DNA of 63,313 nucleotides, the filler included, from Hausera hauseri (lineage: Eukaryota), in the NCBI GenBank assembly GCA_046269625.1. It is 10 parts of 10 records of this genome, joined end to end, with 100 filler letters (N's around TTAATTAATTAA, not from the genome) between each part and the next. Parts side by side here need not be neighbours in the genome. Positions count along the whole stretch, not along the records: positions 36,288 to 46,342 come from JBJURY010245515.1; 9 more parts are not named here. One strand, given 5' to 3'. Under the pieces are notes generated by a model, which searched no databases, was not told the DNA's origin, and saw nothing but the letters and a program-made list of their open reading frames with translations. Position numbers and translations under genes: made by a program. The first letter of the stretch is position 1. Every line of letters begins with the position of its first letter. Positions 40,217 to 43,200 of the stretch are shown here, piece by piece.

Positions 40217-43200
40217 ACAGATATTCACACATGAGTTTTATAAAGGGTCCAGATGACGAATTAAAGGATGCGTATAAGATGCTAGATAAGGCTACATTAG
40301 CAAAGCCAATAGTTTCTAATCAGTTGTCGGAATGATTGCAATTAGTAACGCGACTAAGTAAATTAGTAGAAGACCGTAGGAAAGAATTTCCAGAAACCGA
40401 GCCTTCTATAAAGAAACAATTCGAAAAGAACGCACGTAACTTAGATACAATAAAAGCAGAAATACATATCCGAAATCAGTTCGAAACATTACGACGACTA
40501 AATTTTATGAAGAAGCAAGAAGAGACGATATTGCAAGTGATTTATAAAATAATCGAAGAAACAAACTTTACAGAGAATCGAAATATGACTTGCAATTTTT
40601 ACCCCAAATTGAGAAACATTCGACTAGAAGGAGTCCAACATTTAACAGCTAGATTTATGGACGAAATTTCAATGCAAGATGTCGAAACTCTAAATATTTG
40701 TGCAGAACACAGAGCGGCTATAGAAGAAGGAATGAGGTTCATACAAAAACCACAAGAATGGATGGCCGGTACAGATTAGAATTGCCATACCGAGCTGACA
40801 AGGATTAGAAACGATCAACGTCTCAGTTTTGAAGAATCTAAGTTCGTAAAGAAATTTCTCGATGCGATAGATCCCGACTCAAAAATAACTGCTTTCCGTA
40901 AACCATTACCAACGAGTAACCACAGAAATATTCTACAAAATTTGGGGAAGATTCCTAATTTTTGGACAAGCTGCATCTGGATTTTTAGCAATATGTTTCT
41001 TGATACAAATGATTAAGGCAGTCATTCAAGCAGTGATAAATTGATATGAAATATTTACATTGACCGGATTTTCATGCAAAATACTGACTGCAATTATAAC
41101 GCCCTTTGGAAAGTTTTTAAAAGCCTACAAATAAAGCAGATGGATATCTAATGTAGAACGCCACGTCGGGTACCACAACCGTAAACGAAAAAGAAGACCT
41201 ATGTTCTTGTACAAGCGGAAATTCATAAAACCGAATACGCAAAGAAATAATTCAGATGATGACGAGCCTAATGGAGGAGAAGTACTTTCGAGAACAGACA
41301 GACACAAGACATATTCCGTCATTAAATCACCATTGCCTATGCTGCCCCCTACTGCTCCAGTCTATGAAGACTATGACAAGCAATCAATGAGCTCGTATCA
41401 GACAGAAATCTACAAGAGGACAATTAGTTTAGAAGACCCCTACAAAGGAACGAAACGTTATGGAGTCCTACGAAAAATTTGTTATCGACAGCCCGTGGAT
41501 GACTCCAGAATAATGTATTCCCCAAGAGAACCTCGGAACATAGAGACTAGATCACCTGTCTGGAAAAATCCAAGATTAAAAGCTTTCCGGAATATATAAC
41601 CACACACTAACAATCTAGAATCATTAATTAGTATTCATGAAACGGAAGAATTGAATATCGAAAACAACGAATTATATCCAAACGGAGAATTAAAACAATT
41701 ATCGGAAAACGTAGTGTTCTCCCTCCCCTGAAATCCGAATCAATGGATATAAGATATCGGCGACTAAATGCCCAAAAGTTACATCAAACTGTTTTGGAAC
41801 AGTAATAGAAGGAAGACCCTTCGCCAAAATTATTATTTAAGGCTGGGAAGTTTATGCGTTAAATGATACAGGTTCTAAGATGTCGTACATTAAAAACGAT
41901 TCTATACCTCACACGTTAAGAGGAAAATTATACCCACTATGTACAAAAGATCCAGGAAGTACAGGAGCTTTTGGCAAATGTCAAAACCAATTTTCAAGTG
42001 GAACCCAGACGTTCAATTATTTGGACAATTTTTCCATCACAAATTTGTAGTTATGCAACAATTAACTGACGATGTAGTTTTAGGATGCGATTTACTAAAG
42101 CGACTACTAAATATGGCAATTGACTTGCAAACAGGCAAACTAATAAAAATTAGACCAAATAAAGGAGTAAAAAGGCTAAGGATAAAAAATTCGGAGAAGT
42201 ATGGATGCCGGTAGATGTAAACATTCCGCCAAGAACAGAGATAATAATTTATGCGCATGTTCGACAAGAAGACGATCAACCGGTATATTTCGAACCGAAG
42301 GAGACATTAAATCCAAATATAATACTTAGTAAGATAATGACGAGAGTACGCTCCGGCCGTATGCCGATAAGAGTAGCAAATAATGCACCGACCCCCGTAA
42401 AACTTCATGCCTATACGACTTTAGGAGATACGTATAAGGTGTCGATCATAACTACTGAAGAAAAGCCTTTCAAGTATGCCGAATTTCCATCTCATGTTGA
42501 AACTAAGTTTTTCCCCTAATCTTATTGTCGATTCTATGAATTACTATGTCGTTACAAATCGATTATTGCTAAGGATGACGAAGATATTGGTAGATCAAAA
42601 GCATTAAAATTGACTATTCTGCTTAAGAAAAAGCCGGGTTCAAATGAAGAAATAGACTTTGAAGATCAAAAGATGCTGAAATGGTACCCTCCGCCACTTT
42701 CACTAAGGCCCAGAATAACGAAGGAAGTTGAATGAATACTTAAGGCCGATATAATTAGGCCCAGTTATAAATCTTGGTACTCACCAATCCTCATGGTTAA
42801 AAAGAAGGGTACTACAAAACATCGATTCTGTATTGACTACAGAGCATTAACTAATCTTATGATGAAAGATTGTTTCCCATTAACATCAGTAAAGAAGGAT
42901 CTAGACAGACTCTCAGGAGCAAAATGGTTTACCACTCTGGACTTACAATCCGGATATTGGCAAGTAGAAATTGAGGATGAAAACCGATATAAAACAGCAT
43001 TCAAAACGCACGATGGTGTTTATAAATTTAATGTAATGCCGTTAGGTATTACCACCGGACCAGATATCTTTACAAGAATGATAAATAAGATGCTAATGGG
43101 ACAAGATCATGCTTTTGCATACTTAGATGACGTAATGATAGCGTTAAAAACAGAAGAGGAGCATTTAAAAGACATAGAATACACGCTGATGCGACTGGAA

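Follow-up and report, generated by a model that had tools for sequence, protein, structure and literature searches.

In Nematoda, Bryozoa and Platyhelminthes, all env genes described for errantiviruses are of the HSV/gB type, and the elements have the order GAG-ENV-POL in several clades (Chary and Hayashi, eLife 2026, PMC13524379). Smed_errantivirus_1-6, Pcro_1-2 and Mlig_2 are examples of the 'ancient errantiviruses' of that study, in which the GAG-ENV-POL elements with a gB-type env are not monophyletic. In Burro/GYPSM1, giant gypsy elements of planarians, gag and protease are separated by an env in the same frame (Arkhipova and Yushenova 2019, PMC6431247), and nematode ERVs with env and pol flipped in a metavirus were reported by Sacco et al. 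2022 (J Gen Virol, as cited in PMC13524379). The Juno and Vesta LTR elements of bdelloid rotifers encode a DEDDy exonuclease as ORF3 (Rodriguez et al. 2017, PMC5408684). A sequence-only reading of the DNA analyzed here had implied that the gag-glycoprotein-pol order is novel; this order is already published (PMC13524379; PMC6431247).

The window, a stretch of 63,313 nucleotides from Hausera hauseri, consists of ten separate records joined by spacers of the form N44-TTAATTAATTAA-N44. Due to this artificial joining, neighbours across a spacer are without physical linkage. The copy under study is located in record 8 (36288-46342), a mosaic of several repeats, and is a decayed, 5′-truncated Ty3/gypsy copy from a high-copy family, here called family B. 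Between 39800 and 42600, 6991 contigs of the public run X1 were placed at a likeness of at least 80%. The summed X1 depth of this region, which is not equivalent to a copy number, ranges from hundreds to tens of thousands and is far above the value of about 10 for single contigs; together with the number of contigs this marks a high-copy repeat family. In total, a fraction of 0.51 of the sampled words of the stretch is present in X1, and no RNA run is among the public runs listed as containing the stretch. We consider it quite probable that family B is a high-copy Ty3/gypsy family with a gB/chuvirus-type tail directly before the protease and a likely GAG-ENV-POL layout, of which the copy in record 8 is a dead, 5′-truncated member that probably lost the end of an upstream domain X, the signal and about 520 ectodomain residues by an out-of-frame deletion near 40887. 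The GAG-ENV-POL reading is supported by published elements that have this order and an env of this class. A second family, called family A, was found in the same window, so that two uncatalogued families are added to the published class and the decay of one copy is documented.

The families described here resemble the elements of PMC13524379 in that they are present in multiple copies and combine a PR-RT-RH-IN of gypsy type with a gB/chuvirus-type env placed upstream of pol. Unlike those elements, the copy in record 8 is dead, and the integrase is followed by a membrane protein and a domain resembling an exonuclease; the word 'exonuclease' is absent from the main text of that paper, the supplements of which may describe such extensions. 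With Burro, as described in PMC6431247, they share an env between gag and protease in one polyprotein and a long extension after Gag. The Burro env, however, is homologous to gypsy Env/F-type fusogens, whereas the env found here belongs to the class III family PF24664, and the dUTPase-like segment that Burro has between PR and RT is here weakly suggested (E 0.85). Families A and B look far smaller than Burro, and none of the MATH, BIR, BCL2 and ankyrin Pfam domains of the Burro type was matched in the window frames scanned, which represent a part of the element. The flipped env/pol order in a metavirus is shared with the non-canonical nematode ERVs, and an exonuclease-like domain downstream of pol with Juno/Vesta. 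According to PMC5408684, the latter have a separate RNase D-like ORF3 with intact catalytic residues and are mostly without env, whereas the domain found here is ISG20-like, fused in frame and seemingly without the first acidic motif.

The remnant of a class III fusion glycoprotein of the gB/chuvirus type, comprising the membrane-proximal region and the anchor, is located at 40889..41134 (+) and contains a stop at 41042. It matches PF24664 (Monjiviricetes_fusion) over profile positions 524-604 of 653 (E 4.9e-15, 55 bits, cutoff 27); the match of family A covers positions 476-629 (E 9e-25) and reaches 48 profile positions further upstream. The peptides quoted in the sequence-only reading were found at their positions, and the proposed alignment with the family A tail was confirmed for the frame from 40889 (score 115, with 0 of 2000 shuffles as high), in agreement with the PF24664 match. 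The start of the glycoprotein had to be corrected, as the homology already begins at 40889-40892, about 33 bases upstream. Of the listed copy differences in this frame, 12 of 16 fall on third codon positions (p 0.0008). The recurrence of the tail proposed for about 27118-27185 was found at 27119-27187 with 87% nucleotide identity, but comprises only the last third of the tail, behind a TTA microsatellite. In total, env lies directly upstream of pol in three records (at 40889, 27119 and 52082).

The family A tail is moderately hydrophobic in two stretches (residues 77-95 and 107-125). In the Atlas search, its top matches were PF24664 clusters with a score of 0.91 and herpes gB was among the lower ones; recognition was low, and the result serves as a lead only. 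When the tail alignment was searched against the PDB, 0 matches were obtained, and the family A tail and the tail-to-protease region had no relatives among 898 and 40 candidates, respectively. Locus searches in viral and metagenome contigs yielded no confirmed relatives, and a close database relative of family A or B was not found. The full five-domain ectodomain, with its fusion loops, cysteine bridges and signal or second TM, is absent from the copy in record 8, and for both families a scan of 146 window frames (60 + 86) gave no upstream PF24664 match and no full ectodomain. A full-length relative was not retrieved from any database searched, and neither the window nor any of these databases contained a record in which Gag, G and PR occur together.

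Downstream of the tail, a linker follows in frame (41135..41725, +), with a stop at 41597 and a frame break near 41725. The proposed common frame of tail and linker was confirmed, but it is interrupted by stops at 41042, 41132 and 41597, and the protease lies in another frame after about 41725. This decayed aspartic protease (41730..42175, +; DTG at 41865-41873) was identified by tblastn to the family A protease, the Pfam RVP match (E 0.002) being below the cutoff. A Ty3/gypsy-type RT with RNase H is located at 42736..43740 (+; RVT_1 E 4e-31, RT_RNaseH_2 E 6e-29) and is 41% identical to that of family A; its gypsy type is reflected in matches to both RT_RNaseH and RT_RNaseH_2. The frameshifted integrase (44011..44593, +), found by tblastn against family A, ends at about 44593. 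The order PR-RT-RH-IN is the same in this copy and in family A and corresponds to that of Ty3/gypsy (Metaviridae). Between protease and RT, a possible dUTPase-like segment was noted at 53168-53440 (+) and at about 42200-42420 (+), for which the only PDB match is a dUTPase (E 0.85).

A second copy of family B, which contains the tail end, linker and protease, is located at 27119..28435 (+) with 77% nucleotide identity to 41054-42413. In this copy the linker end runs in frame into the protease, the frame break near 41725 is absent, and the indels are at other sites than in the copy at 40889. Between the two copies, third positions account for 71 of 133 differences in the linker (p 2e-6) and for 60 of 112 in the protease region; in the short tail stretch common to both, no third-position bias was seen (4 of 11). 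A single polyprotein from G onward is likely in family B. In the copy at 27119, the protease is followed almost directly by the post-integrase cassette at 28435 (+), and the lack of RT, RNase H and IN points to a second internal deletion in family B.

Upstream of the tail, the 3′ part of domain X is located at 40231..40887 (+; 219 codons, stops at 40333 and 40777), for which no Pfam family and no hydrophobic segment was found; the AlphaFold model is all-helical with low confidence (pLDDT 47). The copy is cut at 40231 and the gag upstream is absent. Gag itself (Retrotrans_gag-like, with a CCHC knuckle), followed by the long domain X, was found at 12674..15452 (-), and a second Gag-X copy with 67% identity to the first at 17032..19753 (-). 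Both end at the edges of their records (12674-16931 and 17032-21722), which were assigned to family B because the last 30 codons of the former overlap 40231-40320. As had been proposed, the frame starting at 40231 corresponds to the end of the extended Gag (12674-12765): between 40231-40320 and 12763-12674, 21 of 30 residues and 65 of 90 bases are identical, 16 of the 25 mismatches are third codon positions, and the alignment score of 129 was reached by 0 of 2000 shuffles. In the 90 bases upstream, only 25 of 90 are identical to the Gag-X record. This abrupt end of the match indicates that the copy is 5′-truncated and has no gag of its own, and the position of Gag upstream of env in family B is seen only via the 30-codon overlap between records and across the deletion junction.

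Searches with X gave a single match in 1.84 billion representatives, the repeat-rich P0002 (E 1.5e-4), which by eye looks like a plant LRR protein and was rejected as a chance match. All Atlas matches of X were below 0.9, and its single-sequence fold was too poor for a structure search. Within the Gag-X frame of record 4, about four tandem copies of 60 bases, 96% alike, are located at 18250-18494.

Just 5′ of the truncated copy, a G-run followed by TG and a TATA-like stretch (40065-40230, +) is suggestive, by its sequence, of a polypurine tract and an LTR start. Four X1 contigs leave at 40165. The stretch 40065-40230 has no match elsewhere in the window; for 39160-40230, six-frame Pfam searches and the comparison with the rest of the window also gave no match, and for this reason an LTR could not be called. 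No repeat pair flanking the copy, which is truncated at both ends, was found in the window. Family A terminates in a purine tract at about 59322.

The X frame and the tail meet out of frame at 40884..40900 (+), within a trough of the X1 depth. For 1411 contigs placed on 40780-41060, the depth is about 3,200 at 40840-40859, 356-645 at 40880-40899 and more than 13,000 from 40910; the trough is thus not zero. Behind 40886, 44 contigs leave, and 15, 7, 5 and 3 contigs join before 40900, 40910, 40916 and 40917, respectively. Five of the best six of 118 loose-end rows are located at 40886-40917. One of the listed contigs has 29 unlike bases before joining at 40890, and none of the best 8 of the 1411 pieces bridges the junction by 31 bases. 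Left of the junction, 3 of 4 differences in the X frame are at third positions, which are too few to test. As contigs leave on both sides of 40886-40900 and the depth drops there, the break was placed near 40887, about 33 bases upstream of the junction near 40921 in the earlier reading. The loose ends flanking the trough suggest that other copies carry other DNA between X and the tail. The start of the PF24664 match suggests that the DNA lacking here encoded the ectodomain (about 520 profile positions) and the signal. The claimed loss of the ectodomain in this copy is supported by the match itself, which starts at the junction with profile position 524, so that about 520 positions are missing. 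This loss was probably caused by an internal deletion near 40887, which breaks the frame and would also have taken away the end of X and the signal sequence.

The same data could be explained if the form without ectodomain were a common trait, either of a non-autonomous subfamily or of the whole family, with an anchor only that tethers Pol. The trough depth of 356-645 far exceeds that of single contigs (about 10) and might reflect a join present in several copies, and both family B records with the tail are without ectodomain. On the other hand, the join between X and the tail breaks the frame, the junction is left by 74 contigs, the trough depth is raised by contigs that end within it on both sides, and the copy at 27119 is cut at another point, by a microsatellite; we therefore regard a common trait as unlikely. 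That the junction joins two different elements by nesting or recombination, and that X precedes the glycoprotein in no natural element, is quite improbable: the intervening DNA was not seen and the record is a mosaic of several repeats, but the two halves are on the same strand in gag-to-pol order, are both covered by X1 at repeat depth, are similarly diverged from other window copies (72-77%), and their order agrees with the published elements.

An assembly misjoin within the repeat would be in line with the lack of a listed X1 contig spanning the junction and with the fraction of 0.51 of sampled words held by X1. However, the X1 records were filtered, so that a coverage hole proves nothing, and the two sides overlap by a few bases, presumably too little for a typical graph misjoin. 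We consider a misjoin very improbable; it would leave the order at the family level unaffected. The further alternative of a host membrane protein as the source of the hydrophobic segment, which the sequence-only reading had raised, was checked and has a negligible probability, since the viral fusion family PF24664 is the only significant Pfam match and is aligned with the longer match of family A.

Family A is represented by one open frame of 2420 codons (52082..59344, +) with glycoprotein tail, linker, PR, RT, RNase H, IN and post-integrase cassette; it was listed as 52034-59344, a start within the spacer, and its true start is 52082. It encodes one polyprotein from the tail to beyond the integrase. 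As its record starts inside the glycoprotein at 52082, Gag and X are not seen for family A, and the claim of two families each with the full Gag-X-G-PR order does not hold for the window; the position of the glycoprotein directly before the protease is shared by both. The RT-RNase H identity of 41% between A and B equals the mean of A to unrelated gypsy RTs (41%, range 33-50%). In an RT tree built by a quick method from 56 rows (three window rows and 53 generic gypsy references with less than 75% identity, from 225 extracted), the clade of A and B has an SH-aLRT of 50 and is not resolved. At least 120 relatives of the family A RT-RH were listed; these are generic gypsy polyproteins of the LTR type, in which RT is accompanied by RNase H, with 34-47% identity, and none of the 120 listed matches the tail by blastp. 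The comparison of the A and B linkers was not significant.

Since both families have the post-integrase cassette in common, they are, judged from sequence, probably sister lineages and not separate captures. The proposal that the layout is an ancestral trait of the lineage is plausible in view of this homologous cassette, although the two families group in the RT tree with an SH-aLRT of only 50; common descent of the layout appears to be a better reading than separate origins, and families A and B would have inherited it from a common ancestor. The product of intact family B copies would be one polyprotein with the order Gag-X-G-PR-RT-RH-IN and further parts. Its ectodomain would enter the ER by means of an internal signal located after X, and a single membrane pass would bring the chain back to the cytosol. 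As Pol would have to be cytosolic, only one of the two hydrophobic stretches of family A should cross the membrane, the other lying along it. Pol would then be tethered to the envelope or membrane until the protease cuts, and particles would bud with the class III fusogen. The copy in record 8 itself can make none of these products.

The post-integrase cassette of family A (56357-59341, +) is in frame with pol and was recognized by hydropathy, a weak fn3 match and an ISG20-like domain. It comprises a signal-like stretch (by eye), Cys-containing FN3-like repeats (fn3, E 0.005, below the cutoff), a Thr-rich stalk, two hydrophobic segments and a domain that resembles human ISG20 (E 5.7e-6). The site expected for the first DEDD motif carries no acidic residue in this domain, and the motif thus appears to be missing. 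Homologous pieces of family B are located at about 23130-25870 (+), at 28440-29450 (+) and at 47260-49750 (-). Of six pieces from family B, four could be aligned to family A in the same order, each with 0 of 500 shuffles, and the alignment of the other two is not significant.

Tentatively, and with more doubt than confidence, the two families may represent an old invertebrate endogenous retrovirus lineage with two envelope proteins per polyprotein. Fusion would be served by a gB-type protein encoded between Gag and protease, and attachment by a separate FN3-like protein after the integrase, behind which lies an ISG20-like nuclease domain that is probably inactive; this separation of attachment and fusion would have been kept across an RT identity of 41%. 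In the paper listings searched, no such element was described as having an FN3 protein or an ISG20 domain, which is weak evidence of absence. The class III fusogen of herpesviruses needs partner proteins, and an attachment protein carried by gB-type retroelements themselves would bear on the aiming and triggering of a class III fusogen in these elements.

Several other elements were observed in the window. Downstream of the truncated copy of family B, at 29540-30960 (+), there is a gag-like frame of a different type, which contains three CCHC knuckles (E 7e-10). Two related decayed copies with 68% identity, located at 32236-35442 (-) and 37536-39159 (+), contain a type B DNA polymerase (DNA_pol_B_2, E 2e-6) and belong to what we take to be a Polinton/adintovirus-like element; the copy at 37536-39159 (+) lies upstream of the copy in record 8. 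A decayed RT fragment in record 2 (11405-11984, +) has no tblastn match to family A or B. Furthermore, a BEL/Pao-like gag (DUF1759) adjoins tandem CCCH zinc fingers at 60146-62558 (-).
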